Shown: positions 18,371 through 50,119, counted from the first letter of the stretch. The stretch: 51,245 bases of DNA from Candidatus Woesearchaeota archaeon (GCA_014729555.1 WJJT01000054.1:1-51245); one strand, 5' to 3'. Made by a program: numbers and translations. Notes: a model not told the origin generated them from the sequence alone.

Positions 18371-18420
18371 GTAATCTAACTGGGATGACACCCAGCTGAA
18401 GACTAAATAACATTCACCCG
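18371..18420 (+). pseudogene. Degenerate partial copy of the downstream tRNA(GAA)
   Basis: 43/51 identity by eye to 18476-18526 (D-arm, anticodon arm, half of the V-arm); no T-arm or acceptor stem. Confidence 0.8.
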
Positions 18421-18469
18421 GTATAATACTCAAGACATTTTGCATATAAAAATGTTTTGGTTTGGCAAA

Positions 18470-18583
18470 GCCAGAGTAGTCTAACTAGGTATGACGCCTA
18501 GCTGAAGACTAGGTGACATTCACCCGAATGTCTTGCGGGTTCAAATGTCATGGTGGGAACTGAAATTCCCGCCTCTGGCGCCA
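18470..18583 (+). tRNA. tRNA with GAA anticodon (Phe), long variable arm, 21-nt intron at 59/60, encoded CCA
   Basis: Acceptor GCCAGAG/CTCTGGC-G; anticodon arm CCTAG-CTGAAGA-CTAGG; V-arm GACATTC-ACCC-GAATGTC; T-stem GCGGG/CCCGC; BHB TTCA-AAT...TGAA-ATT gives intron 18546-18566. Confidence 0.88.
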
Positions 18584-18638
18584 AATACCTTATTCAATCA
18601 AAACCTTAATATAATCCTTATTCTTATTTCTTCTTAAA

Positions 18639-19379
18639 ATGGGTGACAAGAAGCCAGTACTAGGCATTGTATCATTCACATGCGACCAAGGATGCCAGTT
18701 CACAATACTATTCATTGAAAAACTAATGGACATTCTAAAGAAATTTGACGTGCAATACTTTCATTTGCTGAAAGAAAAGAACAGAAAAGCAAAATTCGAC
18801 CTCTGCTTTGTAGAAGGAGCGATAACAACAAAAAAAGAAGCAGAAAAACTCAAAGAAATCAGAAAAAAAAGCAAAGTACTTGTGGCGCTGGGAGCATGCG
18901 CATGCCACGGCGGAGTTCCTGCAATGCGAAACTTCATAGAAAATAAAGAACTTGAGAAATACGTCTACAACCAAAAGCTTCCAAAAGACGCACTGTCAGC
19001 AGCAGGAATAGGAGAATACGTGAAAGTAGACTATTACATGTATGGCTGCCCAATAATAAAAGAAGAATTCATGAATTTTTTAAATCAATTCCTGAAAGGA
19101 AAAATAATGAAAGAATTTGAGGGGCCTGTGTGCGCAGAGTGCCCAAGACAAGGCAAGCAAGACTGCTTTTTAAGACAGAAAAAAATCTGCCTGGGGCCGC
19201 TGACACACGGCGGATGCTCAGCAGTCTGCACAAAAGCAAACTTTGAGTGCATGGGATGCAGAGGACCAAGACCAAAAGCAGACTACAAGGCAGAAATAGA
19301 GCTTTTCAAGTCCTGGGGATTATCAGAAAAAGAGGTAATGCAAAGACTAAACATGTTCAAGAACATAGAAAACACATAA
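18639..19379 (+). CDS. [NiFe] hydrogenase small (delta) subunit, group 3b-like
   Basis: TCDQGC, VEGAI, LGACACHGG, YGCP, CxxC, CLGPLT.GGC...C, CMGCRG. Confidence 0.9.
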   Translation: MGDKKPVLGIVSFTCDQGCQFTILFIEKLMDILKKFDVQYFHLLKEKNRKAKFDLCFVEGAITTKKEAEKLKEIRKKSKVLVALGACACHGGVPAMRNFIENKELEKYVYNQKLPKDALSAAGIGEYVKVDYYMYGCPIIKEEFMNFLNQFLKGKIMKEFEGPVCAECPRQGKQDCFLRQKKICLGPLTHGGCSAVCTKANFECMGCRGPRPKADYKAEIELFKSWGLSEKEVMQRLNMFKNIENT

Positions 19380-19428
19380 AATCATAAGATTTTAAGTGTA
19401 CAAAAAATTCAGGAGGAATTTTTCAGGT

Positions 19429-20706
19429 ATGCCAAAAAAAATAAACCTAAACCAAATAACAAAAATAGAAGGACACGCTAAACTCCACATAAAGATAGAC
19501 AAAGGAGAGATAAAAAAAGTAAACCTGAAAATCTATGAAGGCTCAAGATACTTTGAAGGCATACTAAAAGACAAGAAATTTAACGACGTCAACCACATTG
19601 CCTCAAGAATATGCGGGATATGCAGCCCTGTGCACGGCCTTACATCTGTCAAAGCAACTGAAAAAGCCCTGGGAGTGCAGGTATCTGAACAAACAGAACT
19701 ATTAAGAGAGATACTGAACATCGGGGGAACAATACAGAGCCATGTCCTGCATTTATATTTCTTAACACTGCCAGACTACACAGGCTTTCCAAACGCAGTG
19801 CAGATGGCGCAAAAACACCCAGAAAAAGTAAAATCAGCGCTAAAGATAAAACAAATAGGAAATGACCTTGTCAGAGTGATTGGAGGCAGGGACATCCACC
19901 CCTTTACCTTAACACCAGGCGGGTTTGTCAGAATACCAAAACCAGAACAATTCAAGGCATTATTAAAAAGCGCAAAAGCCTGCCTGCCAGAAACAGAAAA
20001 AGCAGCACATTTATTCTGCGGACTGGACTACCCAGACTTTAAGCGCGAGACAAAACATTATGCACTAAAAGCCAAAAAAGGGTGCTTTTTCTGCCCAGAA
20101 GACAAGATAACCTGCACAGGAGGAAAACAGTGCATAGCAGTCACAGACTATGAAGATTATTTCAAGGAGTTTTTCAAGCAGGGCTCAACAGCAGAATTTG
20201 CAAAAGCAAATGAATCAAGCTACATGGTAGGAGCATGGTCAAGAATACTTAACAATTATGACCAATTAAGCAAAGAAGGGAAAAAACTAACAAGCTGCAT
20301 ACTGCCAAGAAAATTCTCACCATTCATGAATAATCCTGCCCAAGCAGTAGAGATGTGGGAAGGGCTCAAAAGAGTTGTTGATGTTCTTGAAAGCACTGAC
20401 TTCAAGCCAGAAAAACCAGTTGAAATCAAGACAAAAGCAGGAACAGGCATAGGAGCAAATGAGGCACCAAGAGGAATTGTATTCCATAAATACAAGTATG
20501 ACAACAAAGGATACACAAAACTGGTCAACATAACAACACCAACAACACAAAACCTGCAAAACCTTGAAGACGACATCAAGCACTTCCTTCCAACACTATT
20601 AGACAAGCCCAAGGAAGAAATACAATTAGAAATAGAGAAACTGATAAGAGCATATGATCCCTGCATTAGCTGTGCAGCACACTTTCTGGAAATTGTGTGG
20701 GAATAG
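19429..20706 (+). CDS. [NiFe] hydrogenase large (alpha) subunit, group 3b-like
   Basis: TKIEGH, L1 motif RICGIC, EAPRG, L2 motif DPCISCAAH, then a short cleavable tail FLEIVWE. Confidence 0.95.
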   Translation: MPKKINLNQITKIEGHAKLHIKIDKGEIKKVNLKIYEGSRYFEGILKDKKFNDVNHIASRICGICSPVHGLTSVKATEKALGVQVSEQTELLREILNIGGTIQSHVLHLYFLTLPDYTGFPNAVQMAQKHPEKVKSALKIKQIGNDLVRVIGGRDIHPFTLTPGGFVRIPKPEQFKALLKSAKACLPETEKAAHLFCGLDYPDFKRETKHYALKAKKGCFFCPEDKITCTGGKQCIAVTDYEDYFKEFFKQGSTAEFAKANESSYMVGAWSRILNNYDQLSKEGKKLTSCILPRKFSPFMNNPAQAVEMWEGLKRVVDVLESTDFKPEKPVEIKTKAGTGIGANEAPRGIVFHKYKYDNKGYTKLVNITTPTTQNLQNLEDDIKHFLPTLLDKPKEEIQLEIEKLIRAYDPCISCAAHFLEIVWE

Positions 20707-20764
20707 TCATAAGTCCTCACAAATTCTGAGATTCAGATTTAATTGGGAATAAAAGAAAACACTA

Positions 20765-20860
20765 TAAAAGCATTAATGTCCGAAGTCTAAACTTCAACAA
20801 GACAGGTAATCCGAAGATCAAACGCTCGTATCAGCCTAAATTCTCCCATCAATGCTTTTA
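20765..20860 (-). ncRNA. Candidate structured ncRNA (long irregular hairpin)
   Basis: On the minus strand: 14-bp stem TAAAAGCATTGATG/CATTAATGCTTTTA, stem TTTAGGCT/AGTTTAGA, tandem G-A pairs, stem ACGAG/CTTGT and a C(UUCG)G hairpin. G-U pairs favour the minus strand. Confidence 0.5.
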
Positions 20861-20926
20861 GAGAATCACTATGCAACTGCCAAACGCAGTATGTTTTAAA
20901 ATATTTTGTCACTATTCTAAAGTAGA

Positions 20927-21430
20927 TTACTTGATTTCCTTAAACATCTCCTTAGGAGCACTGCAAACAGGACATATATCTGGAATCTCATCGCCCACAA
21001 TCGTGTAACCGCAGCACTCACAGACATGATAATTAGTTGGTTCTAAATCTTTTTTCTCTTTAATCGCCTTTAGGGCCTTTTCATACTCTCTCTCGTGAAT
21101 CTTTTCAGCAGCAATAGCCCACCTGAAAGACCTCACTGCATCATTGTCATTAGCCTCTTCAGCCTCCTTGATAAATCTCGGATACAGCTTCTCTGCCTCA
21201 TACTTCTCACCCTCAAAAGCATCAACAATGTTCTCCTCAGTGGTCTTTATTCCGTTCAAGACATTCAGGTGGTTCCTTGCATGAGCAGTCTCAGAAGCAG
21301 CAGCAGCCCTGAACAGCCTGGCAATCTGCTTCCTGCCCTCTATCTCAGCCTTGTCTGCAAAAAACAAATATTTCCTGTTAGCCTGGCTCTCTCCTGCAAA
21401 AGCCTCCTGAAGATTTTCTTTAGTTGTCAT
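20927..21430 (-). CDS. rbr: Rubrerythrin
   Basis: AFAGESQANRKY, ExxH motifs and a C-terminal rubredoxin CxxC...CPVC. Confidence 0.95.
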   Translation of the reverse strand: MTTKENLQEAFAGESQANRKYLFFADKAEIEGRKQIARLFRAAAASETAHARNHLNVLNGIKTTEENIVDAFEGEKYEAEKLYPRFIKEAEEANDNDAVRSFRWAIAAEKIHEREYEKALKAIKEKKDLEPTNYHVCECCGYTIVGDEIPDICPVCSAPKEMFKEIK

Positions 21431-21446
21431 GATAAATCACCCCAAA

Positions 21447-21812
21447 CTAACTTTTTCTTAACTCATTTATAAGCTTTATTATTCCCTGCTTTATAGTTTC
21501 CTTGTTGCCATGCATTGGAATGCCGATGATTGTTACGTTATTTATCTTGCCGATTGATTTTCTTAGTTTCAACTCAGTACCCAAGTCAAAATCATGCATT
21601 GTAACAGGATGAAAATCCTTGACCTTATCAAGAGGAATCAATCGAACATCTTTCAAGCCTTTTACAACATCAAGAACAACAACATCGCCATTGATGCTGT
21701 CCAGAGAATCACACTTGATGAACTCAACACCTGCTATCTTTAATTCATCAGCCAATTCTTTTGCAAGAGAATCATCTTCAATATATTCATTGCCAAAACA
21801 GAGGACTTTCAT
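21447..21812 (-). CDS. Hydrogenase maturation protease-like protein (short HycI/HybD type)
   Basis: FGNEYIEDD, VVLD and TMHDFDLG motifs, in hydrogenase context. Confidence 0.7.
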   Translation of the reverse strand: MKVLCFGNEYIEDDSLAKELADELKIAGVEFIKCDSLDSINGDVVVLDVVKGLKDVRLIPLDKVKDFHPVTMHDFDLGTELKLRKSIGKINNVTIIGIPMHGNKETIKQGIIKLINELRKS

Positions 21813-21847
21813 GAACGTGCAAAATCAAAAAGTATTTATATTCTTTA

Positions 21848-22753
21848 TTGTTCTGCAAGCACATGATAAAGAAGGGGCATGCATTTGTTCTACTGACAGC
21901 ATTAATTAGCGGAGTGTCCATCTTTGTTAATAAATTTGGGGTAGAGGGAATAAACCCATACCTATTCACATGGTCAAAGAACATATTAGTGGTTTTACTC
22001 CTGTTCTCATTACTGATATTATTCAAAGACCTGAAAACATTCAAGACACTGAATAATAAACAATGGCTAAAGCTTGTAGCAATAGGATTTTTCGGGGGCT
22101 CAATACCATTTTTACTGTTCTTTAAAGGATTATCAATGAGCCCAAGCTCAACAGCAGCACTACTTCATAAATCAATGTTCATCTTTGTGAGTGCCTTGGC
22201 AGTATTATTCCTAAAAGAGAAGATGAACAAAGGATTCATTGTGGCTGCAATACTGCTATTTGCAGGAAATCTGTTCTTGCTAAAATTAACAAACTTAAGC
22301 TTTGGAATACCTGAATTACTGATATTAATCGCAGTATTATTCTGGTCAACAGAGACAATCATCTCAAAAAACACACTAAAAGAACTGCCATCCAATGTTG
22401 TGGCATTCGGCAGAATGTTCTTTGGAGCAATATTTATTCTAATATTCCTGCTTGCAACAGGAAACATGGGACAATTCCTTGAATTAACTCTTCCACAACT
22501 AGGATGGATTGCCTTAACATCTGCATTCTTATTGTTGTATGTCACAACATGGTATGCAGGACTAAAATACACACCAGCATCAGTGGCAGCAAGCATACTA
22601 GTATTAGGAAGTGCAATCACAACAATACTGTCAATTGCATATGCTGGAAGCTTCAGCATTGTGGAAATCTTAGGAATTGGTTTAATCAGTGCAGGAGTAA
22701 TAACTGCAATCTGCACATCTAGAGTGAAAATATTACTTCCTTCAAAGAACTAA
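21848..22753 (+). CDS. DMT/EamA family transporter
   Basis: 10 TM helices with two EamA-like repeats (FLKEK). Confidence 0.85.
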   Translation: MFCKHMIKKGHAFVLLTALISGVSIFVNKFGVEGINPYLFTWSKNILVVLLLFSLLILFKDLKTFKTLNNKQWLKLVAIGFFGGSIPFLLFFKGLSMSPSSTAALLHKSMFIFVSALAVLFLKEKMNKGFIVAAILLFAGNLFLLKLTNLSFGIPELLILIAVLFWSTETIISKNTLKELPSNVVAFGRMFFGAIFILIFLLATGNMGQFLELTLPQLGWIALTSAFLLLYVTTWYAGLKYTPASVAASILVLGSAITTILSIAYAGSFSIVEILGIGLISAGVITAICTSRVKILLPSKN

Positions 22754-23193
22754 ACTTTTTCTACTGCATAACCATAGTGAATCATTGCAGAATCTCCTGC
22801 TTTAGCAGTTGGATATAATGCATGCACATATCTTATATCACCATCGCCCAAATCTGCCCTAAAGACATCACCAATCTGTTTTACGAGTTTGCCTTTTTTA
22901 ACAACACACAACCTCTTAATCATAGGAGGCAGGTCCTTGCTAATAGCCTCTTCATGCCTGTTCCAGAAGTATTCTCTAATTGTTTCTACAGTCCATGGAT
23001 CTGGATTGATTTTCATGATTCTCTGAATTGCCACAGGAAAAATCCGCTCAAGATAAGCCCTATCCAGCGGAGTGTCTGTCTCAGCTGCCTGCTTTAATTT
23101 TTCCCACTCTTTTTCTGTGATAGTCTTTCTCACATCAACCAAGACCCTTGCACAGGGAAAAGAATATCTCAAGAAATAAACCTCAGGCAGCAT
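22750..23193 (-). CDS. DUF6390-like hydrogenase-associated protein with a HypC-like C-terminus
   Basis: FLRYSFPC N-terminus, C-terminal GDSAMIHYGYAVEKV; overlaps hypC. Confidence 0.65.
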   Translation of the reverse strand: MLPEVYFLRYSFPCARVLVDVRKTITEKEWEKLKQAAETDTPLDRAYLERIFPVAIQRIMKINPDPWTVETIREYFWNRHEEAISKDLPPMIKRLCVVKKGKLVKQIGDVFRADLGDGDIRYVHALYPTAKAGDSAMIHYGYAVEKV

Positions 23194-23389
23194 TTTCCCA
23201 CTCCTTCAAGCTTGCCAGAGCCTCTTCTTCTGATAATTTCTGGACAATAATCTGCGCAGAGACAAAAACATAGTCACCGATACTGAATTCTCCTTCAACA
23301 ATCTTTGCAGTCCTTTGCTCACCAGGATATTCTATAGTTGCCTCATCATCCTCAATCTTAATTATTTTGCCAGGAATAGCCATGCACAT
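23183..23389 (-). CDS. hypC: Hydrogenase assembly chaperone HypC
   Basis: MCMAIPGKI N-terminus, GDYV, EEA. Confidence 0.9.
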   Translation of the reverse strand: MCMAIPGKIIKIEDDEATIEYPGEQRTAKIVEGEFSIGDYVFVSAQIIVQKLSEEEALASLKEWENAA

Positions 23390-23712
23390 TATTCAACCAC
23401 CACATCTTTTAGAACGATTTCCTCTCCTTCAATGATCTTAAAAGGAACTTTCTTGCATTTAGGGCACTCAAACAAAGTAAGATCATGCGCTTTCTCAAGA
23501 ATTTTCGGCTCTCCCCTGTAGCCGCACCTGCACTCAACAAGGCCAGGAATTCTTATTACCTCGACTTCCCAATCCACTCTTTTTTCCAGGGCATCTTTTA
23601 GCTCATCCGCAGGCAGGTGCGCAAGATCACCTACCTCTATAGTGACTTTTTTCACATTTCCCTGCTCTTTTGCCTTGTCAATCAGTTCCTTGGCAATAAA
23701 CCCCTCGTGCAT
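23389..23712 (-). CDS. hypA: Hydrogenase nickel chaperone HypA
   Basis: MHE N-terminus, CxC and CPKC zinc ligands, GEE. Confidence 0.9.
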   Translation of the reverse strand: MHEGFIAKELIDKAKEQGNVKKVTIEVGDLAHLPADELKDALEKRVDWEVEVIRIPGLVECRCGYRGEPKILEKAHDLTLFECPKCKKVPFKIIEGEEIVLKDVVVE

Positions 23713-23785
23713 AATCTCATAAATACAAAATAGTATATAAGATTTTCTAGTAAGATTTTTATATTAGCGCACCAAAATAAGTCAC

Positions 23786-24805
23786 ATGAAAAAAGAGGTT
23801 GTTATAGTGGGTGCAGGCCCAGGCGGACTGAGTGCAGCAGAAACACTAGCAAATGCAGGAAAAGAAGTTCTTGTCCTTGAACAAAATAAAATAATAGGAA
23901 ATAAAGTTTGCGCAGGAGGACTGACAAGAAATGCAATGAAACTAGGCATACCAAAATCACTTTACCAGAGAACCTTCAAAAAAATACTCCTGCACGACAC
24001 AACAGAAACAGCGGAAATCGAATTAACCAAGCCAGTGATTGCAACAATAGACAGGAAAGACCTCGGCAGGTGGATGGCAAAAAAGGCCAAAAAAGCAGGA
24101 GCAGAGATACAAACAGAAACAAGCGTAAAAAACATCGGCAAGAATTACATTGAAACAGATGACCAAAAAATCCAGTTCAAGTACTTAATAGGGGCAGACG
24201 GGGCAAACAGCATTGTAAGAAAACACCTCGGCCTTGAAAGCAAAAAAGTGCTGGAAGCATTCCAGTACATAGTCTCAAAAAGATTCAAGGATTTAGAGAT
24301 GTTTGTAGACCCAGACAGGTTCGGGCCAGTGTATGCCTGGATATTCCCATACTCAAAAACAACATCCATAGGCACAGGAGCAGACCTGGACTACAAAGGA
24401 ATAAAACCAAGCACAGTAAAAAACAATTTTGACAAATGGTGCATGCAGAGAGGATACAGCATCAAAAACTCAGAATTCCAGGCACACACAATAAACTATG
24501 ACTACAGCGGGTATGAATTTAAAAGAAAATTCCTTGTAGGGGATGCAGGCGGTTTTGCATCAGGCCTGACAGGAGGAGGAATGTACCAGGCAATTATCTC
24601 AGGAAAAGACACTGCAAAAAAAATAATTGATTCAAAATACGGCTGCCCAAACATCCACCGCATACTGCAAACAAAAGCAATAGAAGAGGCAGCACTAGGC
24701 GTGCTGGAAATAAACAAAACAGCATCAAAAATAGGATATGGCCTGCTCACAAAAATGTGCAAAACACAGCTGCTTGGCAAATTCTTTGTTGAGCACATGG
24801 CCTAA
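23786..24805 (+). CDS. FAD-dependent oxidoreductase, geranylgeranyl reductase family
   Basis: GAGPGG, KVCAGG, IGADGANS, YAWIFP, VGDAGG. Confidence 0.85.
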   Translation: MKKEVVIVGAGPGGLSAAETLANAGKEVLVLEQNKIIGNKVCAGGLTRNAMKLGIPKSLYQRTFKKILLHDTTETAEIELTKPVIATIDRKDLGRWMAKKAKKAGAEIQTETSVKNIGKNYIETDDQKIQFKYLIGADGANSIVRKHLGLESKKVLEAFQYIVSKRFKDLEMFVDPDRFGPVYAWIFPYSKTTSIGTGADLDYKGIKPSTVKNNFDKWCMQRGYSIKNSEFQAHTINYDYSGYEFKRKFLVGDAGGFASGLTGGGMYQAIISGKDTAKKIIDSKYGCPNIHRILQTKAIEEAALGVLEINKTASKIGYGLLTKMCKTQLLGKFFVEHMA

Positions 24806-24866
24806 CGAATAGAAACATTTTTAAATAAGAACTTTATAATCAATTAAAAAAGGGGGTGTAATAGTA

Positions 24867-25049: not shown

Positions 25050-25051
25050 AC

Positions 25052-32048: not shown

Positions 32049-32200
32049 GGCGGCGTAGCTTAGCCTGGTATAGTACTGCGCTCATGAATGTTTTTCTTGA
32101 GCTATGAGGTTTTTAACCAATGATTACAAGAAAGCAGTGCAACGCAGGGGTCCCGAGAGGTATATACAAATATCCGGGAATTCAAATCTCGGCGCCGCCA
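32049..32200 (+). tRNA. tRNA-Met(CAT), elongator-type, with two introns (about 55 nt in the anticodon loop; 23 nt at 53/54)
   Basis: GGCGGCG/CGCCGCC-A; anticodon stem CTGCG/CGCAG enclosing 62 nt; T-stem BHB CCCG-AGA...CGGG-AAT gives intron 32158-32180. The first intron's boundaries are uncertain because its BHB is relaxed. Confidence 0.8.
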
Positions 32201-32943
32201 TTTTTAATATCATACAGGTTTATTTTTCCATCTAAGATTAAATTCTTTTGTTCGTAATTTAAATTAGCTGGGCAGAATCCAAATTTCTTCCAAATCCTAT
32301 ATTTCAGAAGGTGTTTTTCATTTCTTAAACCAATTATTTTCAAATATCTTTCAACATTTTTGACTCCGTTAAGCGATAAAACCCATGTTTTGTTAGGGCG
32401 AGCTTTGCTTTCTTTTTCTTCGTTAAAAGATGCATTCAATTGAAATTTTTCCAATAGTTTCGCAACTTGTTGAATAAGTGGTTTAGATTTAGATGTCAAA
32501 CGAAGTTCTGGATAAGAATGATATTTTCCTTTAAAGGGTTTTCTAAATTTTAAGTAACCATCTGTATCGAACAATCCTCTGATACACGCTATTGTGAATT
32601 TTTTATCAGATAAAACCCATGCAGGAATTTGCATATCTGTCTTTGGACCTAAAGGCAATCCCATTCTTTTCTTGAATAAAATCAAAGACTTGCGATGATA
32701 TTTCATTTCAACAGTATTTTTCCTAATGTGTATATGAGAGGGAAAAATATTATACAGTTTTTTGATTAATTCTTTTACAAATTCGCTATATGCCACATCA
32801 TTTATCGCATCTGCAGAGTATGAAAAAGTATTATTGTTATATTTAGGATAAATATTCATGAAGCCATCTCCAATATGAATTCCTGTTTCTTCTGCCAGTT
32901 CTTCACTATATTCTGTCGGTAATTTTAATTTGTATTTTACCAT
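32182..32943 (-). CDS. Free-standing two-motif LAGLIDADG homing endonuclease
   Basis: LAEETGIHIGDG and IRGLFDTDG motifs; AT-rich; its last codons overlap the tRNA-Met 3' end. Confidence 0.88.
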   Translation of the reverse strand: MVKYKLKLPTEYSEELAEETGIHIGDGFMNIYPKYNNNTFSYSADAINDVAYSEFVKELIKKLYNIFPSHIHIRKNTVEMKYHRKSLILFKKRMGLPLGPKTDMQIPAWVLSDKKFTIACIRGLFDTDGYLKFRKPFKGKYHSYPELRLTSKSKPLIQQVAKLLEKFQLNASFNEEKESKARPNKTWVLSLNGVKNVERYLKIIGLRNEKHLLKYRIWKKFGFCPANLNYEQKNLILDGKINLYDIKNGGAEI

Positions 32944-33077
32944 GTCAAATAGTTTAGAATTACGTCTTTAAATAGTCTACGAGAACCTGTCCAGTGACCT
33001 GTGATTATTTGGGAAAAAATCGAAAAATTTTCGGAAAATTAAGTAACTTTTAAAAACACCCATATGTTTTCTTACTT

Positions 33078-33129
33078 CTATGCCGTGGCACAACCGTGGC
33101 AAACTTTTAAAAAAAAAGTTTGATCAAAA
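33078..33129 (+). repeat. tRNA-5'-like fragment fused to a CAAACTTTT-A5-AAAAGTTTG hairpin
   Basis: CTATGCCGTGGCACAACCGTGG resembles 33183-33207; the hairpin recurs at 49732-49751. Confidence 0.55.
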
Positions 33130-33186
33130 CTCTTCAAGCAGGATCTGCGATCCCGCGATATGCGGATTGTGCTACGCAATAGCTAT

Positions 33187-33292
33187 GCCGGCGTGGTACA
33201 ACCTGGTACTGCGCGAGACTGGAAAATTGGAACCCGTTCCAAATTCTTGGAAAAAGGGGTTTCCAAGAAATCACGTTTCCTTCGGGATACCC
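33187..33292 (+). pseudogene. Truncated, intron-containing tRNA-Ser(GGA)-like copy
   Basis: GCCGGCG-TG-GTA..TGC-G-CGAGA-CTGGAA, a structured insert, then TCACG and the V-arm TTTCCTTCGGGATA identical to the intact tRNA-Ser; ends in poly-A with no T-arm. Confidence 0.75.
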
Positions 33293-33311
33293 AAAAAAAA
33301 TCGCCTCCAAT

Positions 33312-33395
33312 GCCGCAGTCGCATAACCTGGTATTGCGCAGGACTGGAAATCCTGTTTCCTTCGGGATATCCCGGTTCAAATCCGGGCTGCGGCG
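33312..33395 (+). tRNA. tRNA-Ser(GGA), intronless
   Basis: GCCGCAG/CTGCGGC-G; CAGGA-CTGGAAA-TCCTG; V-arm; CCCGG-TTCAAAT-CCGGG. Confidence 0.95.
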
Positions 33396-37950: not shown

Positions 37951-38832
37951 ATGACTAAAAAACTAGCAGGTTTCATGGCAAAAAAGAAAAAAGGCAGAGC
38001 AATAAACACAATAGGAAAAACACTGGTATTCACAAGCACAGCAGTAATGTACATGTTCAAAGGACTCTACACATTCTTAGACGGCATAGGCTCTGCAATA
38101 CTGTTCACAAGCAAAAAAGTAAAAGAAAAAAGAACAGAAAAACCAGGCAATAAAAAAGAAAAAGCAAAAAACAGGCCTAAAACATCTGCAAAATACACAG
38201 TACTAAAAGACATAAAGCCAATAAAAGGAAAATCAACGTCATTTGAAAACTTCTTTCATAAATCAGACAGCACAATCGGGATAATACTAGGAGCAAGAGG
38301 CACAGGAAAAAGCGCAATAGGGCTAAAGCTGTTAGAAAACGCGCATGCAAAGGCAGGAAAACAAGTCTATGCAATAGGTTTCAATGCAAAAGACCTGCCA
38401 GGCTGGATAAAAACAGCAAAAACACCAGAAGAGGTGGAAAACAACTCCCTGGTCCTGATTGACGAGAGCGGAATAAGCTTTAGCTCAAGAAAATCAATGT
38501 CAAACTCAAACCAGTTATTATCATCCTTGTTAATGGTAGCAAGGCACAAGAACATAAGTGTTTTATTTATTACACAAAACAGCTCAAACCTTGAAGTAAA
38601 TGCATTAAGACAGGCAGACTTCTTAGTAATGAAGCCAAGCTCATTAATGCAGAAAGACTTTGAAAGAAAGAAAATAAAAGAAGTCTATGAAGCAATGGAA
38701 CCAGGCTTTGAAGAATTAAAAGAAACAACAGGTTTAACTTATATTCATTCTGACAAATACCAGGGATTTGTAACAAACGAGCTACCATCATTCTGGACAA
38801 CAAGAGTCAGCAAGGCGTTTAAAGAGAAATAA
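37951..38832 (+). CDS. Membrane-anchored P-loop ATPase (Zot/pI-like)
   Basis: Walker A GARGTGKS, Walker B LVLIDE, ARHK...ITQ; start may be at 37975. Confidence 0.7.
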   Translation: MTKKLAGFMAKKKKGRAINTIGKTLVFTSTAVMYMFKGLYTFLDGIGSAILFTSKKVKEKRTEKPGNKKEKAKNRPKTSAKYTVLKDIKPIKGKSTSFENFFHKSDSTIGIILGARGTGKSAIGLKLLENAHAKAGKQVYAIGFNAKDLPGWIKTAKTPEEVENNSLVLIDESGISFSSRKSMSNSNQLLSSLLMVARHKNISVLFITQNSSNLEVNALRQADFLVMKPSSLMQKDFERKKIKEVYEAMEPGFEELKETTGLTYIHSDKYQGFVTNELPSFWTTRVSKAFKEK

Positions 38833-43454: not shown

Positions 43455-45083
43455 TTACGAAAACAAAGAGTCTAGAATCTTATCTCTATCAAAAGGCTCT
43501 AAATCATCATACTCCTGCCCCACACCCATGTACAGAATCGGCTTCTTTGTGACATAACTGACAGAGATAGCAGCACCGCCTTTTTCATCAACATCAGCCT
43601 TAGAAAGAATAATACCATCAACCCCGACAGCCTCATCAAACTTCTGCGCCTGCTCTGTGCAGTCATTGCCAGTAATGCTCTCACCAACAAAAAGAACCAA
43701 ATCAGGCTTAGAAACCCGCACAATCTTCTTCATCTCCTCAACAAGATTATGGTCAGAGTGAAGCCTGCCTGCAGTGTCAATCAAGACAACATCCCTGTCC
43801 TTTGCCTCTGCATGCTTGACAGCATCAAAAGCAACAGCAGCAGCATCAGCACCATAATCATGCTTTATGAGCTTGACTCCTAAATTATCAGCATGCAACT
43901 GCAACTGGTCTATGGCTGCAGCCCTGAAAGTGTCTGCAGCAGCAAGAACAACAGAAGCCTTGTTTTTCAAAAACATATTAGCAACCTTAGCAATAGAGGT
44001 TGTCTTTCCAGAACCATTAATTCCAACAAAACAAATAACCAAAGGCTTTTTTTCTTTCAGCTTTGCAAACAGGTCAACCTGCTCGACATCAAACAGCCCA
44101 CTCACAGAATTTTTCAAGGAGTGAATTACAGTCTCTTCAATCTTTGCCCTTGGAACAGGCTTTTCAGTCAAATCCTTTTTTAAATCTGCCTTTATTTTCT
44201 CAATAACCTCAACTGCTACATTGTTTTCCAGCATTGCAAGCTCTAAGTCCCAGAACAAATCATCAAACTGCGATTCTGAAATTCTTTTGGTGGTAATCTT
44301 CTCAGTTATCCGCCTGAAAAAACCCTTTTTCTCATCTTTAGGAGCCTCTTCAACAGGCTTTTCTACTGGCTTAGGCTTGATTTCAGGTTTTGGTTTTGGA
44401 ACTTCTTCAGGCTTCTCAACCTTAACTTCAGGCTTAGGCTTAACTTCTTTAGGCTTTTCTTCAACTTTTGAAGCCTCTGGCTCTTCCTTAACCTCTTCAT
44501 AAATCTTAAGAATCTCTTCTGCAGGAGTTTCTTCTTTTTTCTCTTCAGGCTTTTTTTCTTCAATTATTTCAGGAATTTCTTCTTCGACTTTCTTAATCCC
44601 TTTCCTAAATTCCTCAATCTTTCTTTCTTCAACTTCTGGAAAAACAGCGCTGCGGAATCCGCAGGACTTGCACACACAATTCAAGGGGGCACCGTAACGG
44701 ACTTTAGCAGCATTATCCTTTTCTATCTCAACATCTATAGAACCGCACTTAGGACAGATTTTTACACACTGTTTCTTTTCTTCCTTAACTTCTTCAACAA
44801 CCTCTGCTTTTTTCTCAGGAACTTCTTCTTTTACTTTTTCAACTTTTTCTTCAGGCTCTTCTTCCTTAACTTCTTCCTCAGCTTTTACTTCTTCCTTGGC
44901 TTCCTCTTTTACTTCTTCTGCAGGCTTTTCCTCAGCCTTCAGCTCTTCCTTAACAGTAACTTCCTCAGGCTTTACCTCTACTTCTTTCTTGACTTCAACT
45001 TCCTCTTCAGGAGCCTCTTCCTCAACCTTCTTGGTAAACTTGTCAAGAGCCCCCTTTAGTTTCTTCTTTAGAAAGCCAAACAT
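43455..45083 (-). CDS. ftsY: SRP receptor FtsY
   Basis: MFGFLKKKL, acidic domain, GINGSGKTT, DTFRAAA, DTAGR, GVGQ. Confidence 0.96.
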   Translation of the reverse strand: MFGFLKKKLKGALDKFTKKVEEEAPEEEVEVKKEVEVKPEEVTVKEELKAEEKPAEEVKEEAKEEVKAEEEVKEEEPEEKVEKVKEEVPEKKAEVVEEVKEEKKQCVKICPKCGSIDVEIEKDNAAKVRYGAPLNCVCKSCGFRSAVFPEVEERKIEEFRKGIKKVEEEIPEIIEEKKPEEKKEETPAEEILKIYEEVKEEPEASKVEEKPKEVKPKPEVKVEKPEEVPKPKPEIKPKPVEKPVEEAPKDEKKGFFRRITEKITTKRISESQFDDLFWDLELAMLENNVAVEVIEKIKADLKKDLTEKPVPRAKIEETVIHSLKNSVSGLFDVEQVDLFAKLKEKKPLVICFVGINGSGKTTSIAKVANMFLKNKASVVLAAADTFRAAAIDQLQLHADNLGVKLIKHDYGADAAAVAFDAVKHAEAKDRDVVLIDTAGRLHSDHNLVEEMKKIVRVSKPDLVLFVGESITGNDCTEQAQKFDEAVGVDGIILSKADVDEKGGAAISVSYVTKKPILYMGVGQEYDDLEPFDRDKILDSLFS

Positions 45084-45088
45084 CGCCT

Positions 45089-45505
45089 TTATTCTCCTTT
45101 CATCAACTCTGCCTGAAGCGCCTGCATCTTATTCGCAAGCTCTGAAAACTTGCCTGTCATGTCTTTCTTGACCTTTTCCAGCTCACCTAACTGCTTCTTA
45201 AGCATCTCTTCAACCTCTGGAACAGACTTGCTGACAGTCGTATTGCTGCCAACATTAACAAGCAATTCCCTGTTATCCTGAATCTTTGCTTTTACAAAAA
45301 TACCAGAACTCAAAGGAACCAGAATATCTGAACCAGGCTCGACTTTTAAAATACTGCCAAGCGCATCTATAACAGACTCAACCTCCATAGACTGCTGCTC
45401 AACTGCATGCAATTGCTGCTGAATCTGCTTTAACTGCTGGTCAATCATCTGCATCTCCATATACTTCTGCTGCATAACCTGAGCATCTTCTTCTTTCTTA
45501 GCCAT
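45089..45505 (-). CDS. pfdA: Prefoldin alpha subunit
   Basis: Coiled coils flanking ILVPLSSGIFVKA...LLVNVGS; adjacent to ftsY. Confidence 0.92.
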   Translation of the reverse strand: MAKKEEDAQVMQQKYMEMQMIDQQLKQIQQQLHAVEQQSMEVESVIDALGSILKVEPGSDILVPLSSGIFVKAKIQDNRELLVNVGSNTTVSKSVPEVEEMLKKQLGELEKVKKDMTGKFSELANKMQALQAELMKGE

Positions 45506-45509
45506 AATA

Positions 45510-45680
45510 TCACTCCAGTTTCTTCAACAATTTCTCAAGATAATGTTTATATTCGTGTTCTCCCTTTAAAAAAGTTAGGGGCATTCCAACAAACAAGCTT
45601 TTCTGCGTCTTTTCAAAATTGGCAAGCTCATGCTTAACCATCTCTCTCAAGACCTTTTTATCATCCCTTGTCAGTGCCAT
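45510..45680 (-). CDS. Small hypothetical protein
   Basis: GAGGTGG RBS; packed within the operon. Confidence 0.55.
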   Translation of the reverse strand: MALTRDDKKVLREMVKHELANFEKTQKSLFVGMPLTFLKGEHEYKHYLEKLLKKLE

Positions 45681-46413
45681 CCTGGTCACCACCTCTTAAT
45701 TTTATATTAATCTCACCAAAATGCTTTTTCTGCTCAAGATGAATCTTGTCCTCATTGAACAAATGCAAAAGCGGAATAAACGTGTACACATGGTCATTTT
45801 TTGTCTCAGAAGGAACTAACTCGCTGAAAGCAATCTGCTCATCCTTTCTGGACTTAAACAGGCTGAGAATCTTTCCATAAATCCCCCTGATTGCCTCACT
45901 GATATCAAACTTTTTCTCAGGAACCTTGACATCAGACTCTCTTATTGAATTAAAAACACGCCTCTTCTTGACCTCAAGAGCCTGTTCAAGAGCATTCACC
46001 AGGTCATAAACAGAAACCTTTCTCTTCCTGGGCTGAGGAGTCCTTGGCATCAACTCAATACCCTCATGCAGTGCCCGCTCCTCGCCCCTCTTTAACTCAT
46101 CTGCAAGGCCGTCATAAAACTCCTCTTCATCAACATCAGTAGCAGCCAAAAGCCTGTCAAACTCATTCAAGTCCTCCCCTACTAATCTCTTGGACTTAAT
46201 CTTCAAAAGAATAGCAGCAGCAAGCAAAACCTTGCCGCTCACCTTTAAATCCATCTGCTTCAGCTCTTTCAAACGTTCAACATACTTCTGAGCAAGCAAA
46301 GAAACATTAACATTCCAGGGATCCATCTCCTCTTTTCGGATAAGGCCGTAAATAATAGACTTCCAGCTAATCTCATTCTCCTCAACAAGCATCTGAAAAA
46401 GCCTATCTTCCAT
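45661..46413 (-). CDS. scpA: Segregation and condensation protein A (kleisin)
   Basis: MDPWNVNV, LLAAAILLKIKS, R.VS..DL..AL, FIPLLHL...LEQ..HFGEI. Confidence 0.9.
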   Translation of the reverse strand: MEDRLFQMLVEENEISWKSIIYGLIRKEEMDPWNVNVSLLAQKYVERLKELKQMDLKVSGKVLLAAAILLKIKSKRLVGEDLNEFDRLLAATDVDEEEFYDGLADELKRGEERALHEGIELMPRTPQPRKRKVSVYDLVNALEQALEVKKRRVFNSIRESDVKVPEKKFDISEAIRGIYGKILSLFKSRKDEQIAFSELVPSETKNDHVYTFIPLLHLFNEDKIHLEQKKHFGEINIKLRGGDQDGTDKG

Positions 46414-46470
46414 AAAATTGACTATTGATATATAGTATATAAAACTTATCAAAAGAAAAAAGAAAAAGTT

Positions 46471-46806
46471 CTACCAGCGCAATGCAGGACAGGGCACAGG
46501 CACGCCTTCCCTAATCAAGCAAAAATTATAGCTGTACTCCCCGAAAACCTGGCCATTAACATTACAACAGACACGAGGACAGTTTGCCACCATACCGCGC
46601 AAGTCATAACAGACCTGGTCATTCTCAGCCTGAACATATGCCAACTCACCATGCAGATTCTTTACTGCACAGCAAATCTTTTTAGATTGAAGCTCGTAAA
46701 CCTCCTGCTCTCTTGAAGGCATTTGATATGCTTTTCCGCTTGTATCACAGCCAATAAGCACAGCAAGGCATGCCAAAACCATCATTAATAAAAATACTTT
46801 TTTCAT
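46471..46806 (-). CDS. Cys-rich lipoprotein (CC-repeat family, paralog C)
   Basis: Lipobox LIGC; two CC...C..xG...C units. Confidence 0.7.
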   Translation of the reverse strand: MKKVFLLMMVLACLAVLIGCDTSGKAYQMPSREQEVYELQSKKICCAVKNLHGELAYVQAENDQVCYDLRGMVANCPRVCCNVNGQVFGEYSYNFCLIREGVPVPCPALRW

Positions 46807-46819
46807 AATTACCACCTTT

Positions 46820-47182
46820 TTATCTACAAGGAACAACACGACCTCCCCTAGAACGGCAGTCATAGAAAGTAAATGATTCCACTATACTGCCCTTAATCTC
46901 TCCGCCAATCTCACAACAGGTAGGAATTGTCCCTGGCTTAGCAAGCCTTCCACCCTGCCTTAAGCAATTCTGTATCTCCTGAGGAGTTTCACAATAAAGC
47001 CTGTCACCAAGCACACAACACATATCAACAGGATAAAAAATCTCTCTCTGCTGGTACTCTGGGACATAAACCTTGTCTGTGCTTCCAGGATACCTGCCAT
47101 AAACAGCAGCACCTGACCTGCAGCCAATCACAAGCAAAGCTAAACAAACAAGAAGTGAAAGCAAAACAAATCCTCGCATCAT
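46820..47182 (-). CDS. Cys-rich lipoprotein (CC-repeat family, paralog B)
   Basis: Lipobox VIGC; two CC...C...GG units. Confidence 0.7.
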   Translation of the reverse strand: MMRGFVLLSLLVCLALLVIGCRSGAAVYGRYPGSTDKVYVPEYQQREIFYPVDMCCVLGDRLYCETPQEIQNCLRQGGRLAKPGTIPTCCEIGGEIKGSIVESFTFYDCRSRGGRVVPCR

Positions 47183-47210
47183 ATCACCTTTTTTAATAAT
47201 ATTGAATCTA

Positions 47211-47241
47211 CAGACCTTCTATTATATAAACATTACTCAAA
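47211..47241 (-). promoter_or_regulatory. Duplicated promoter, copy 1
   Basis: 31-nt exact repeat (CAGACCTTCTATTATATAAACATTACTCAAA) with a TTTATATA TATA box on the minus strand. Confidence 0.75.
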
Positions 47242-47264
47242 ATAATAAAGAAAAAAATAATTTA

Positions 47265-47741
47265 TTATCCTCCGATAACTGGGCAAGGCACTACTTGTCG
47301 TCCGAGTTTTGGTAAGATAACACAATCGCTAGCAGAGCGCCCATACAAGCTTCCACCAGCATTTTCACAACATCCAGGACAATCTACTATTTTTCCGCCA
47401 CTTTTGCCACATAAATAAGTACTAGCAACTGCAACATAGCTGCCATCTATAGACCTCGCACAACACTTTGGCGACGTAGGCACAGGTTCTGGCGACGTAG
47501 GCACAGGTTCTCTTTCATATGAGCTTGTAGTATACGCCGATTGTTGATATGATTGAGGGTATGATGGGGGGTATGATTGTTGGTACACTGGCTTTTGGGA
47601 TGGCGGCTCATATTTTGGAAAATCATAACTCTTTTTTGGCTTGTCAAACCAGCCCTTTCCAGTTTGCGGCTGCTGCTGGCAGCCGACTGCAAATAACAGT
47701 ACACAAGAAAGAACAATTGTCATTAAAAGCAATGCTCTCAT
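47265..47741 (-). CDS. Cys-rich lipoprotein (CC-repeat family, paralog A) with a Pro/Gln/Tyr linker
   Basis: Lipobox AVGC; two CC...C..xG...CP units. Confidence 0.72.
   Translation of the reverse strand: MRALLLMTIVLSCVLLFAVGCQQQPQTGKGWFDKPKKSYDFPKYEPPSQKPVYQQSYPPSYPQSYQQSAYTTSSYEREPVPTSPEPVPTSPKCCARSIDGSYVAVASTYLCGKSGGKIVDCPGCCENAGGSLYGRSASDCVILPKLGRQVVPCPVIGG
47469..47510. repeat. 21-bp perfect tandem repeat encoding EPVPTSP twice
   Basis: TGGCGACGTAGGCACAGGTTC x2. Confidence 0.9.
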
Positions 47742-47822
47742 TAAATATCACCTTTTTGTTTACCAAAAAAAGACCAGCTGAGACTTTGCTTCAGCGCTGC
47801 CTTTTTAATTCTAAAAGCTTCT

Positions 47823-47853
47823 CAGACCTTCTATTATATAAACATTACTCAAA
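47823..47853 (-). promoter_or_regulatory. Duplicated promoter, copy 2
   Basis: Identical to 47211-47241. Confidence 0.75.
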
Positions 47854-48008
47854 TTAAGCAGGGAACAGTAAACTTTTCAAACCAGCCCTTAAGAAAGGCA
47901 GAATCCTAACAAGTGCAGCACAAGGCTAGCACGTGTGAAAATGATTTGAATATTATATTCGCAATATAGCGTAAACCTTTTAAACCAATAATATTTCCTC
48001 ACACTTAC

Positions 48009-48132
48009 GGGCCCATGGTCTAGTGGTTATGACAACACCCTTACAAGTGAAAACTAAGCAAGGTGTGGATCCCCGGTTCGAACAGGCTCGAAGGATTCGC
48101 GTCCTTCAGCCACGAAAGTCCGGGTGGGCCCA
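48009..48132 (+). tRNA. tRNA-Val(TAC) with introns at 37/38 (15 nt) and 59/60 (36 nt)
   Basis: GGGCCCA/TGGGCCC-A; BHBs CTTA-CAA..TAAG-CAA (intron 48046-48060) and TTCG-AAC..CGAA-AGT (intron 48083-48118). Confidence 0.93.
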
Positions 48133-48141
48133 TTCAAATCT

Positions 48142-48212
48142 GCGCCAGTGGTTGAATGGTACAATACGACGTTGCCAACGTTGTGGTCTGGGTTCGATTC
48201 CCGGCTGGCGCA
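48142..48212 (+). tRNA. tRNA-Gly(GCC)
   Basis: GCGCCAG/CTGGCGC-A; CGACG-TTGCCAA-CGTTG; TTCGATT loop. Confidence 0.95.
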
Positions 48213-48245
48213 TATTTTATATACTTCTTGATAAATTAGCCTTTT

Positions 48246-49097
48246 ATGTTGAACTCATTAATTAAAGGAGCCAGAAGAATTCCAACTTATGCCAACCAAG
48301 TTTATTATAAAGATGGAAATTACATTAAAGTTTTTGACCATGCCTGGGAAGCAAGAAAAGCCATACTTGTTTACAAATTATTAGATGATATCCCTGTTCC
48401 CCGCGTTCTTAAATCAGGCAGAAATTATATTGTGATGGAAGAGATTAAAGGCGAAACTTTAGCCAAAGCAAAATATGATAAGGGAAAAATTGCCGCACAG
48501 TTAGGAACAATCTTAGCTAAGATTCATTCGAGAACATATTCAAAATTTGGTGATTTATCTGGGAGAGAAGTGGGTAAATCTCAAGAAATCAATGCTGGAC
48601 CGTTCACAACATGGAAAGAGATGCATCAGGCTATCGTAAAACATAGACTCACATATTTTAAAAAAACTAAATTTGAGCATTTAATAAAGCCAATACAACA
48701 ATATTTTAAACAAAACAAACATTTAATTGATTACAAAATCACGCCCAGATTACTACATATCGATCTTAACAAGAAAAACATTATTGTTAAAAACAACAGA
48801 ATTGTGGGCATACTTGATGCAGAGGGCGGTTTTGTTGGACATAATGAGGAAGATCTGATGCGGACAGAACTTGCACAGTTTGGTGATGTATTTGCAAACA
48901 AAAACAAATGCAGAGATGTGTTTTTTCGAGCTTACCAAAAGCAAATACAGTTAGATAAAGGATATAAAGAGAGGTGTAAATTTTATTGGTTGTCAAGAGC
49001 GATGGTTGGAATGCGTTGCATAATACAGTTTCCAGATTATAATGATCCTGAATTTCCTGGGAAAATTGAAGCTTTTCTAAAACAGAACGTCAAATGA
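48246..49097 (+). CDS. Aminoglycoside phosphotransferase (APH)-like kinase
   Basis: IPVPRVL, MEEIKG, LAKIH, HIDLNKKNI, ILDAE; atypical codon usage. Confidence 0.8.
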   Translation: MLNSLIKGARRIPTYANQVYYKDGNYIKVFDHAWEARKAILVYKLLDDIPVPRVLKSGRNYIVMEEIKGETLAKAKYDKGKIAAQLGTILAKIHSRTYSKFGDLSGREVGKSQEINAGPFTTWKEMHQAIVKHRLTYFKKTKFEHLIKPIQQYFKQNKHLIDYKITPRLLHIDLNKKNIIVKNNRIVGILDAEGGFVGHNEEDLMRTELAQFGDVFANKNKCRDVFFRAYQKQIQLDKGYKERCKFYWLSRAMVGMRCIIQFPDYNDPEFPGKIEAFLKQNVK

Positions 49098-49112
49098 GTT
49101 ATTAATCATACC

Positions 49113-49469
49113 ATGCCTAGACTGCCAAGAGTATCGGACTTTGAAAACAAAAAAGACCACTTAGGCAGGAAGATATGCAGGAATTGTGAACAGACTGTGG
49201 CAAAAAGAAGACGATTCTATTGCAGCACAAAATGCATGGACGAATTTAATCAGAATCACGATTGGCACTGGGTTAGAAAAGCAATACTAAGACGAGACAA
49301 TTACCGCTGCAGCATCTGCAGAACAAGAAAGCGCAAAGCAGAGCTTGATGTCGACCATATTATTCCAGTAAGATGCGGAATCAATCCATTTGGCAAAAAT
49401 AATCTGCGGCTTCTCTGCAAAGAATGCCATAAAGCAAAAACAAAACTGGACCGCGAAGCAAATCTTTAG
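49113..49469 (+). CDS. HNH endonuclease
   Basis: RD.YRCSIC, VDHIIP, NLRLLCKECHKAKT, plus an N-terminal zinc finger. Confidence 0.9.
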   Translation: MPRLPRVSDFENKKDHLGRKICRNCEQTVAKRRRFYCSTKCMDEFNQNHDWHWVRKAILRRDNYRCSICRTRKRKAELDVDHIIPVRCGINPFGKNNLRLLCKECHKAKTKLDREANL

Positions 49470-49508
49470 AAACTTTTAAAAACCGCTCTAAGTTTTTATC
49501 AACCAGAC

Positions 49509-49654
49509 GGGCCCGTAGCTCAGCTTGGTTAGAGCGCTGGTCTTATATGGCCACGTTTTAAGCATAACTCGTCTAAGCGAGCCAGAGGTCCTGGGTTCAA
49601 ATATGTTCGAGGGGATTCAACTCCCTTCGGTCGTTGAAAGTCCCAGCGGGCCCA
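49509..49654 (+). tRNA. tRNA-Ile(TAT) with introns at 37/38 (32 nt) and 59/60 (39 nt)
   Basis: GGGCCCG/CGGGCCC-A; CTGGT-CTTATA..A-GCCAG; BHBs CTTA-TAT..TAAG-CGA (intron 49548-49579) and TTCA-AAT..TGAA-AGT (intron 49602-49640). Confidence 0.92.
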
Positions 49655-49706
49655 CTTTTTTCCCAAAACCTTTAAAAACACAATAGAACTTTTCAACAAA
49701 CGGACG

Positions 49707-49751
49707 CAACACTCCTGTGTAGCAGCCCGGCGAACTTTTAAAAAAAAGTTC
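49707..49751 (+). pseudogene. Degenerate 5' copy of tRNA-Glu fused to a GAACTTTT-A4-AAAAGTTC hairpin
   Basis: CAACACTCCTGTGTAGCAGCCCGGCGAAC is colinear with CAACGCTCCTGTGGTGTAGTCCGGCCAAT (22/29). Confidence 0.65.
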
Positions 49752-49809
49752 AAACAAAAAAGCCTACAAACGGACAAAAGGTTTTCGCAAACGCTCAAAC
49801 CCTTACAAC

Positions 49810-49884
49810 GCTCCTGTGGTGTAGTCCGGCCAATCATCCGGCACTTTCGATGCCGGGACCGGGGTTCGAATCCCCGCGGGAGCA
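49810..49884 (+). tRNA. tRNA-Glu(TTC)
   Basis: GCTCCTG/CGGGAGC-A; CGGCA-CTTTCGA-TGCCG; CGGGG-TTCGAAT-CCCCG. Confidence 0.95.
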
Positions 49885-50005
49885 CTTACTTTAACAAAAG
49901 GCTTTTAAACAACGCCCAAATCTTAAACGATAAACAATGAAAAGAAGCAGTAGATAAAGAAAATCAAAGATTTTCTAATCTCAAACGTTGAAAATAATAA
50001 AAAAA

Positions 50006-50119
50006 ATGAAGCGAAGTTCAAGACGTTGGAAAAAGAAAGGACAGATGCGCTGGAAATGGCAGAGAAAGCGCATGAAAAAAGACAAGAGAAAGAGAGCTCA
50101 GCGAGCAGGCAAAAAATAG
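50006..50119 (+). CDS. rpl41e: Ribosomal protein eS32 (L41e), 37 aa
   Basis: MKRSSRRWKKKGQMRWKWQRKRMKKDKRKRAQRAGKK matches the archaeal WKKKGxMRWKW signature; below the ORF-track cutoff. Confidence 0.88.
   Translation: MKRSSRRWKKKGQMRWKWQRKRMKKDKRKRAQRAGKK

Follow-up and report, generated by a model that had tools for sequence, protein, structure and literature searches.

The window analysed here is the 51,245-nt contig C44 of a Candidatus Woesearchaeota archaeon (GCA_014729555.1, WJJT01000054.1:1-51245). Four of its loci, tRNA(GAA), tRNA-Ser, tRNA-Glu and the ribosomal protein gene eS32, carry a piece of the gene's own 5' end repeated upstream of the intact gene. These four scars are instances of one recurrent layout, in which a gene terminus (T, 13-103 nt) is present twice, with a short spacer (S, 19-120 nt) between the copies; we call it T-S-T. 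The layout recurs throughout the genome and is polymorphic among relatives, its spacer at the gyrase gene gyrB is a multicopy element of about 118 nt, and its terminus copies bear signatures of gene conversion. We propose that small palindrome-ended cassettes were inserted duplicatively at gene termini and that conversion and unequal recombination between the copies followed. To this reading, in which we infer the insertion step and the enzyme behind it, we assign a probability of roughly 0.4.

The genome, here G000, is assembled to 1.04 Mb in 58 contigs and is 89% complete; 21 tRNA genes were detected with Rfam and 18 with ARAGORN, many of them interrupted by introns. The space between the copies was compared in five congeners, three further genera and four metagenome runs. 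Genomes G001-G004 are unpublished, G005, G009, G015 and G032 are public, and X1-X4 are public metagenome runs, of which X2-X4, from two studies, supplied Logan contigs at least 85% alike to the window. For the shuffle test, each gene start was locally aligned to its own 300-nt upstream region and to 1000 shuffles.

The first-pass annotation had pointed to a degenerate upstream copy at all four loci, and each of them was recovered. For tRNA(GAA), 18475-18526 aligns to 18370-18420 with a score of 62, and for tRNA-Ser 33311-33350 aligns to 33186-33225 with a score of 40, in both cases reached by none of 1000 shuffles. The tRNA-Ser copy extends further, through an insert of about 49 nt into the variable arm (33267-33292). 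The tRNA-Glu match (49811-49833 to 49712-49734, score 21) was reached by 15 of 1000 shuffles. At eS32 the nucleotide match alone is not significant (129/1000), and leader and start together align at 4/500; weak by itself, this copy is confirmed by relatives as judged from sequence. A control, tRNA-Gly, has no upstream self-match (430/1000 shuffles reach its score).

A genome-wide self-alignment of the stretches upstream of tRNA genes had also been suggested; here all tRNA genes were aligned to their own flanks. Counting scores of at least 20 in a viable orientation (a 5' piece before the gene or a 3' piece after it), seven of the 28 tRNA or tRNA-like loci qualify, against a 95th percentile of 19 and a 99th of 24 in 756 mismatched gene/flank pairs. 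In the opposite orientation one further locus (Asn) scores 20, and the variable-arm copy of tRNA-Ser also reaches 31 there. Further cases are tRNA-Leu on contig C41 and a tRNA locus on C38 with three units, of which the second and third, promoter included, agree at 76/77 positions. Among protein genes, T-S-T is present at the starts of genes on C33 (copies 43/43 identical), C48 and C49 and at the end of gyrB on C57; the C33 gene is presumably AMP/thymidine-phosphorylase-like. A restriction to 5' ends, as first supposed, does not hold, for 3' ends are duplicated downstream of tRNA-Cys (C50), a second tRNA-Ser (C15) and gyrB in the same genome.

The tRNA(GAA) locus consists of the following features.

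18263..18270, no strand: left one of two 8-nt direct repeats around the tRNA(GAA) module of about 333 nt (four-genome alignment)
18370..18420, plus strand: dead 5' copy of tRNA(GAA), gene positions 5-57, its anticodon stem now unpaired (0/1000 shuffles)
18421..18469, plus strand: spacer with an A/T-armed palindrome around a TATA-like box (18435-18455), about 20 nt 5' of the tRNA, as read from the sequence
18470..18583, plus strand: working tRNA with anticodon GAA, variable-region hairpin, interrupted T-loop and encoded CCA (Rfam 24.6 bits)
18596..18603, no strand: right copy of the 8-nt direct repeat (four-genome alignment)

G004 lacks the whole 333-nt module of dead copy, spacer and gene at the syntenic site. 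Contig C21 of G000 holds a second, paralogous tRNA(GAA) locus, whose dead copy is homologous. The anticodon of this tRNA varies: the window, C21 and G005 have GAA, G003 has TAG at the syntenic site, and G002 has AAG; in all three variants the dead copy has the anticodon of its live neighbour, which we read as a sign of conversion. With a 7-bp hairpin in its variable region, G73 and an encoded CCA, the tRNA may be a class-II-like body bearing a phenylalanine anticodon.

The tRNA-Ser locus is layered.

33045..33057, plus strand: original promoter-like box of tRNA-Ser, kept before the single gene in G003 and G004
33080..33101, plus strand: dead copy 1, 5' end of tRNA-Ser, of the G003/G004 allele type minus 3 nt
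33100..33184, plus strand: spacer S1 with a palindrome (33100-33122) that, together with the next 15 nt or so, matches an end of the 118-nt element in other genera
33185..33292, plus strand: dead copy 2, comprising 5' exon, intron of about 49 nt and variable arm of tRNA-Ser(GGA), ending before the T-arm
33293..33311, plus strand: 19-nt spacer S2 with a run of eight A at its start
33312..33395, plus strand: working tRNA-Ser(GGA), no intron

At the orthologous locus, G001 and G004 have one intron-bearing tRNA-Ser gene each. In G003 the promoter is followed by 5' exon, intron and variable arm of the G004 acceptor type, and then, after a 22-nt A-run spacer, by a complete intron-less gene of the G001 acceptor type. 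G000 has this arrangement plus one additional front layer: dead copy 1 and S1 are missing in G003 and in metagenome contigs of X2/X3 (joint 33077>33183), and the Logan contigs of X2-X4 skip exactly 33078-33182 and 33260-33346. The first, short tRNA-Ser fragment of the first-pass annotation is real, since it matches the G003/G004-type 5' end minus 3 nt.

The tRNA-Glu and eS32 loci follow each other near the end of the window.

49670..49679, plus strand: original promoter-like box of tRNA-Glu
49712..49734, plus strand: dead 5' copy of tRNA-Glu, absent in G003, G002 and the X3 and X4 contigs
49735..49809, plus strand: tRNA-Glu spacer (S2) with palindrome or promoter-like box at 49732-49751
49810..49884, plus strand: working tRNA-Glu(TTC)
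49919..49957, plus strand: dead leader and start of eS32, with a short upstream open reading frame (ORF) at 49937-49957 (MKRSSR-stop)
49959..49975, plus strand: 17-nt A/T-armed hairpin between the eS32 units, a weak match of the element model
49977..50119, plus strand: second leader (49977-50005) and working eS32 gene (50006-50119)

The identity of eS32 derives from its 37-residue product, which matches archaeal ribosome chains named L41e/eS32 (phmmer E about 6e-5) and has no Pfam or NCBIfam match. The upstream piece, MKRSSR-stop against MKRSSRRW in the gene, differs by six bases in 18 nt, all of them synonymous. The dead eS32 start of G004 agrees at 18/18 positions with the only live start of G002, both unpublished genomes; G002 has the empty, single-copy site, and the X2-X4 contigs skip 49952-50020.

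An A/T-armed palindrome was found in every spacer read, usually abutting one T copy. These palindromes resemble the promoter boxes that precede single tRNA genes, similar to the transcription factor B recognition element (BRE) and TATA box of the lineage. At tRNA-Ser, tRNA-Glu and eS32 a promoter-like TTTAAA box precedes the outermost dead copy by 23-42 nt, and in relatives lacking the duplication the equivalent box stands directly before the single gene. The outer copy therefore marks the original position of the gene start, as the first-pass annotation had supposed from the box.

Its further proposal of an insertion between the copies is supported by empty forms in relatives, for example at C48, where G003 and G002 have the empty site. 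In all loci and relatives compared, three states occur between the copies: none (a single copy), a non-coding spacer of 19-120 nt, or tandem repeats of the latter. These states bear on the nature of the inserted material. The duplications had been attributed to a larger integrase or LAGLIDADG/HNH element that inserted, brought in a new 5' end and was lost by later deletion, and two free-standing endonuclease genes lie in the neighbourhood.

32182-32943, minus strand: free-standing LAGLIDADG ORF (Pfam), within about 140 nt of the tRNA-Ser locus
49113-49469: free-standing HNH ORF (Pfam), within about 240 nt of the tRNA-Glu locus

Both ORFs are real and close to their loci, tyrosine recombinases occur in the genus, and LAGLIDADG paralogues adjoin tRNA genes elsewhere in G000. 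However, no coding insert, and hence no endonuclease or integrase ORF, was found between the copies at the loci of eight other genomes or in four metagenome runs. Relatives lack the endonuclease genes themselves at the orthologous loci: within about 1.5 kb on each side of the tRNA-Glu and tRNA-Ser loci retrieved, neither an HNH nor a LAGLIDADG homologue is present. In G001, tRNA-Met and tRNA-Ser are only 11 nt apart with no LAGLIDADG gene between them, the site at which the ORF is inserted in G000. Likewise, a kinase-like ORF and the HNH ORF, flanked by tRNA-Gly and the following tRNA, are missing from the Logan contigs of X2-X4, which skip 48227-49507 and have 33 other letters instead. A link of the duplications to these genes was therefore rejected, and remnants of a deleted large element are incompatible with one precise 118-nt spacer recurring at 39 places, as described below, so that we regard this origin as very improbable.

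ARAGORN missed two neighbouring tRNA genes: at 32049-32200 a tRNA(CAT) with two introns (Rfam 28.9 bits), and at 49511-49655, immediately ahead of the tRNA-Glu locus, a tRNA whose T-loop is interrupted. The LAGLIDADG paralogues in G000 (C2:2041-2640 and C48:7541-8119) adjoin intron-bearing tRNA genes.

The 118-nt element, the longest form of S, was recognized at gyrB, where it forms the spacer (C57:19660-19777) between the live gene end and the downstream copy. It recurs at many unrelated places in congeners. Fifteen aligned copies share 58 invariant columns and a fold consisting of a rod and a terminal A/T hairpin, with 37 predicted pairs, of which 11 show compensatory changes. Rfam 15 holds no family for it, and in five element-bearing loci only tRNAs matched at E<=1; an Rfam scan of the window and the element loci returned only tRNAs and the start of the small-subunit (SSU) rRNA. 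With a covariance model, 1, 1, 7, 2, 4 and 10 copies were counted in six genomes of the genus. At the level of the family the element is present in 12 of 31 genomes, with 1-13 copies each, and it was found in none of 60 genomes from 60 other families of the order.

About half of 39 examined copies are bracketed by duplicated gene ends. Direct repeats abut both ends in 10 of 17 copies of a first set and in 8 of 22 copies in G009, G015 and G032. They measure 13-103 nt and comprise 3' ends of protein genes, stop codon included, and of tRNAs, a 44-nt piece of a tRNA and an entire tRNA-His; near-identical pairs (29/29 and 71/74 in the first set, 35/35 and 44/44 in the second) are among them. At two element loci, L056 and L057, T-S-T-S-T layers are stacked.

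The spacers of the other loci are related to the element in a looser manner. With filters off, the six best weak matches of the element model in 54.6 kb (E 0.09-1, individually not significant) all fall into T-S-T spacers, and S1 of tRNA-Ser and S2 of tRNA-Glu are the top two weak matches of the whole window. The first 30-39 nt of S1 resemble the palindrome end of element copies from other genera. The C33 spacer is not repeated elsewhere in the genome, and within the genus only the C33 and C48 orthologues match its pattern well.

Some observations around gyrB and C33 are added here. In G003 (C9, L051) an insert of about 470 nt with a small ORF occupies the place of the 118-nt element downstream of gyrB, and the C33 spacer of G002 and G005 has two additional A/T-armed hairpins nested inside. 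RNA splicing of the element together with one T was considered and rejected: the fold of the gyrB transcript is unremarkable (z -0.62), and the copies are 154 nt apart and out of frame. The duplicated start at C33 of G000 (C33:1235-1352) constitutes an upstream ORF of 13-26 codons that is conserved in the genus.

Whether a spacer resembles its surroundings differs among loci, and this bears on plain local tandem duplication as a rival of insertion. According to the latter, slippage or unequal crossing-over would have multiplied promoter-leader-start units, the palindromes would be native promoters rather than cassettes, and only duplications spanning a gene boundary would be tolerated. At tRNA-Glu, C38 and partly eS32, the spacer repeats what stands ahead of the first copy, and the copy number varies. 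For tRNA-Glu, G003 and G002 have a promoter followed by the tRNA without a dead copy, G004 has two units, and G005 has at least 3.5 near-identical 98-nt units in an array reaching the contig end. The Logan contigs of X2-X4 skip 49694-49809 and have nine other letters instead; in X2, G005-like contigs carry the duplication while another contig skips the HNH region. A leader hairpin (about 49777-49805) stays paired in G004 and G005 despite altered stems. The spacer body is unique to the locus, neither the rest of G000 nor 20 further genomes of the family containing a match, and it shares homology with the stretch that precedes the dead copy (12/500 in G000, clearest in G004), both of which fit a tandem duplication. 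The near-identical C38 units with their promoter, the alignment of the two eS32 leaders at 4/500 and the occurrence of both 5'-upstream and 3'-downstream cases point the same way.

At C57, C33, C48, tRNA-Cys and S1 of tRNA-Ser, in contrast, the spacer copies neither what precedes the first T nor what follows the second, and is thus foreign to its flanks. At gyrB it is the multicopy element known from unrelated loci, and an element flanked by two T copies without a second element cannot come from a duplicated unit of terminus and element in either order. As an account of the layout as a whole, tandem duplication seems improbable to us.

The "dead" copies are, judging from their sequence, not simply decaying. 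In ten coding T pairs, three of which are gyrB orthologues and not mutually independent, 43 codons changed synonymously and nine non-synonymously, and the outer copy retains its stop codon. Nine of these pairs are individually depleted in non-synonymous change compared with random mutation; the tenth has one difference. In a comparison of G000, G004 and G005, conservation of the outer gyrB copy (31-33 of 35-36) exceeds that of the live end (27-28 of 35), and the element at this locus (99-104 of 119-120 alike) also lies above the live end. The C33 duplication is common to G002-G005 and absent in G001; in G000 a G000-specific codon is present in both copies of this shared duplication, which indicates conversion. 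In G003 and G005 a short ORF begins with the upstream C33 copy, and its stop codon overlaps the GTG at which the main gene starts.

This pattern, together with the tRNA-Ser alleles, is best fitted by a different route, in which a cassette consisting of S and its own terminus copy recombines into the homologous terminus and displaces the resident end, its own copy joining the working gene as is known of integrative elements at tRNA genes, either by a Campbell-type single crossover through host recombination or with a tyrosine recombinase acting in trans. The live tRNA-Ser gene, intron-less and of the G001 acceptor-stem type, was not copied from the dead one, which is of the G004 type. To this extent the diverged replacement 5' end postulated in the first-pass annotation is supported at tRNA-Ser; its derivation from a large element is not. 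The near-exclusively synonymous differences with the kept outer stop, the greater likeness of outer gyrB copy and element between species, and the stacked layers at tRNA-Ser of G000, L056 and L057 would follow as well. Tyrosine recombinase genes are present in all five genus genomes searched, with two in G000 and nine in G002. On the other hand, a terminus-bound cassette cannot reach new targets, and the element sits at many unrelated genes; a circle of 150-220 nt would have no known means of persistence or transfer, and no circular junction was observed. Moreover, identical T pairs with subsequent conversion can explain the synonymous bias without import, and the dependence among the gyrB pairs reduces the independent cases. 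We consider a general origin by terminus replacement unlikely.

According to the duplicative insertion that we favour, a cassette S would insert and the target stretch would be copied to both sides, resembling a long and variable target-site duplication of 13-103 nt. The gene would be left intact only if the duplicated stretch spans its start or stop, which would be why cassettes are seen at termini; at 5' ends only insertions carrying a promoter would survive. The T copy continuous with the gene body works, and the other is stranded beside the original promoter or the downstream flank. Gene conversion between the T copies could keep the stranded copy gene-like, unequal recombination could collapse the locus to one copy or expand it into arrays, and some stranded protein-gene starts might be kept as short upstream ORFs.

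Several of our observations weigh against this reading. The excess of synonymous change and the conservation of the outer gyrB copy require effective conversion or some other constraint, and the allele difference at tRNA-Ser makes simple target duplication insufficient without further steps. The homology of the tRNA-Glu spacer to its upstream region belongs here too. Searches with nhmmer and the covariance model found no full element in G000 other than that on C57. Terminal inverted repeats are lacking, the two element ends differ, and the likeness of copies in one genome to the G000 copy is only 73-89%, so that no recent burst is seen. To our knowledge, no transposase class makes target duplications so long and variable, and no transposition mechanism fits those of 13-103 nt around a structured 118-nt element. 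Reverse transcriptase, as for a SINE-like, target-primed retroelement, and Cas1, as for casposon-type integration, were rejected as integration enzymes, since among five genus genomes searched RVT_1 was found in one (G004) and Cas1 in none.

An artefact of metagenome assembly would offer a trivial explanation, considering the 58 contigs, the G005 tRNA-Glu array ending its contig and the 56-nt self-overlaps at two contig ends. Yet layouts with lineage-specific substitutions recur in G002-G005, G009, G015 and the Logan contigs of two studies, and the copies are mostly diverged rather than identical, which leaves this explanation hardly credible. The self-overlaps at the ends of C19 and C39 are mutually reverse complementary, so these contigs probably join.

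Comparison with known systems gives partial likenesses. Integrases that target tRNA genes, and e14 and phage 21 at icd of E. coli, use attachment sites overlapping a gene end. As there, the insert is flanked by direct repeats of a terminus, the gene remains intact, layers can stack, and the displaced copy keeps its coding character with mostly synonymous differences. Unlike there, the insert is non-coding and only 19-120 nt long, the repeats enclose no integrase, 5' and 3' ends are hit equally often, and one element family has many targets. With MITEs (miniature transposable elements with inverted repeats), Correia, ERIC/IRU and REP/REPIN elements and the Rickettsia palindromic elements, the element shares its size of about 120 nt, multiple copies, discrete ends, patchy distribution, rod fold, position at gene boundaries and possible promoter-like sequence. 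It differs in having no terminal inverted repeats, in flanking duplications of 13-103 nt instead of a fixed 2-10 nt, and in that no partner transposase was identified. The tRNA-Glu and C38 arrays resemble the variable head-to-tail units of tandem promoter repeats or minisatellite-like arrays before stable RNA genes, whereas here the units include part of the gene and the spacer is foreign at many loci. At an archaeal mobile-element integration site described in the part of PMC4033280 considered here, a tRNA fragment likewise adjoins an intact tRNA gene; the insert there is 1.8 kb and encodes a recombinase, unlike our loci, which have no coding insert in any genome examined. In the literature searched, no description of the T-S-T layout or of the element was found.

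Two observations from G000 stand apart from the layout. An ORF at 37951-38832 of the window, amid several ORFs without family, has a weak match to a Zot-like P-loop family of Pfam (E 5.5e-6), and C43:2529-2720 is a repeat with a period of 55 nt.

Taken further, and here we are tentative to the point of doubt, the findings may describe a new miniature mobile cassette of one family of DPANN archaea. With a structured core of about 118 nt or in a palindrome-only form, and without an enzyme of its own, it would settle at the starts and stops of genes, together with a long terminus copy. It would supply promoters and replacement termini, drive remodelling of tRNA genes (intron loss, allele swaps, anticodon change) and leave terminus mimics that conversion maintains and that are sometimes reused as coupled upstream ORFs. 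Should the duplications turn out to result from genuine insertion, a so far unknown route of integration would be indicated. For the "dead" copies, the synonymous-only divergence would mean that purifying selection reaches a non-expressed repeat, or else that these copies have an unrecognised function. False starts, pseudo-tRNAs and upstream ORFs would interfere with gene calling. The genomes of DPANN archaea are minimal and single-copy, and annotating them is difficult; terminus duplication, promoter import and swaps of tRNA 5' ends would explain part of this disorder, and would offer a concrete case, open to testing, in which essential genes are reshaped by small non-coding DNA.

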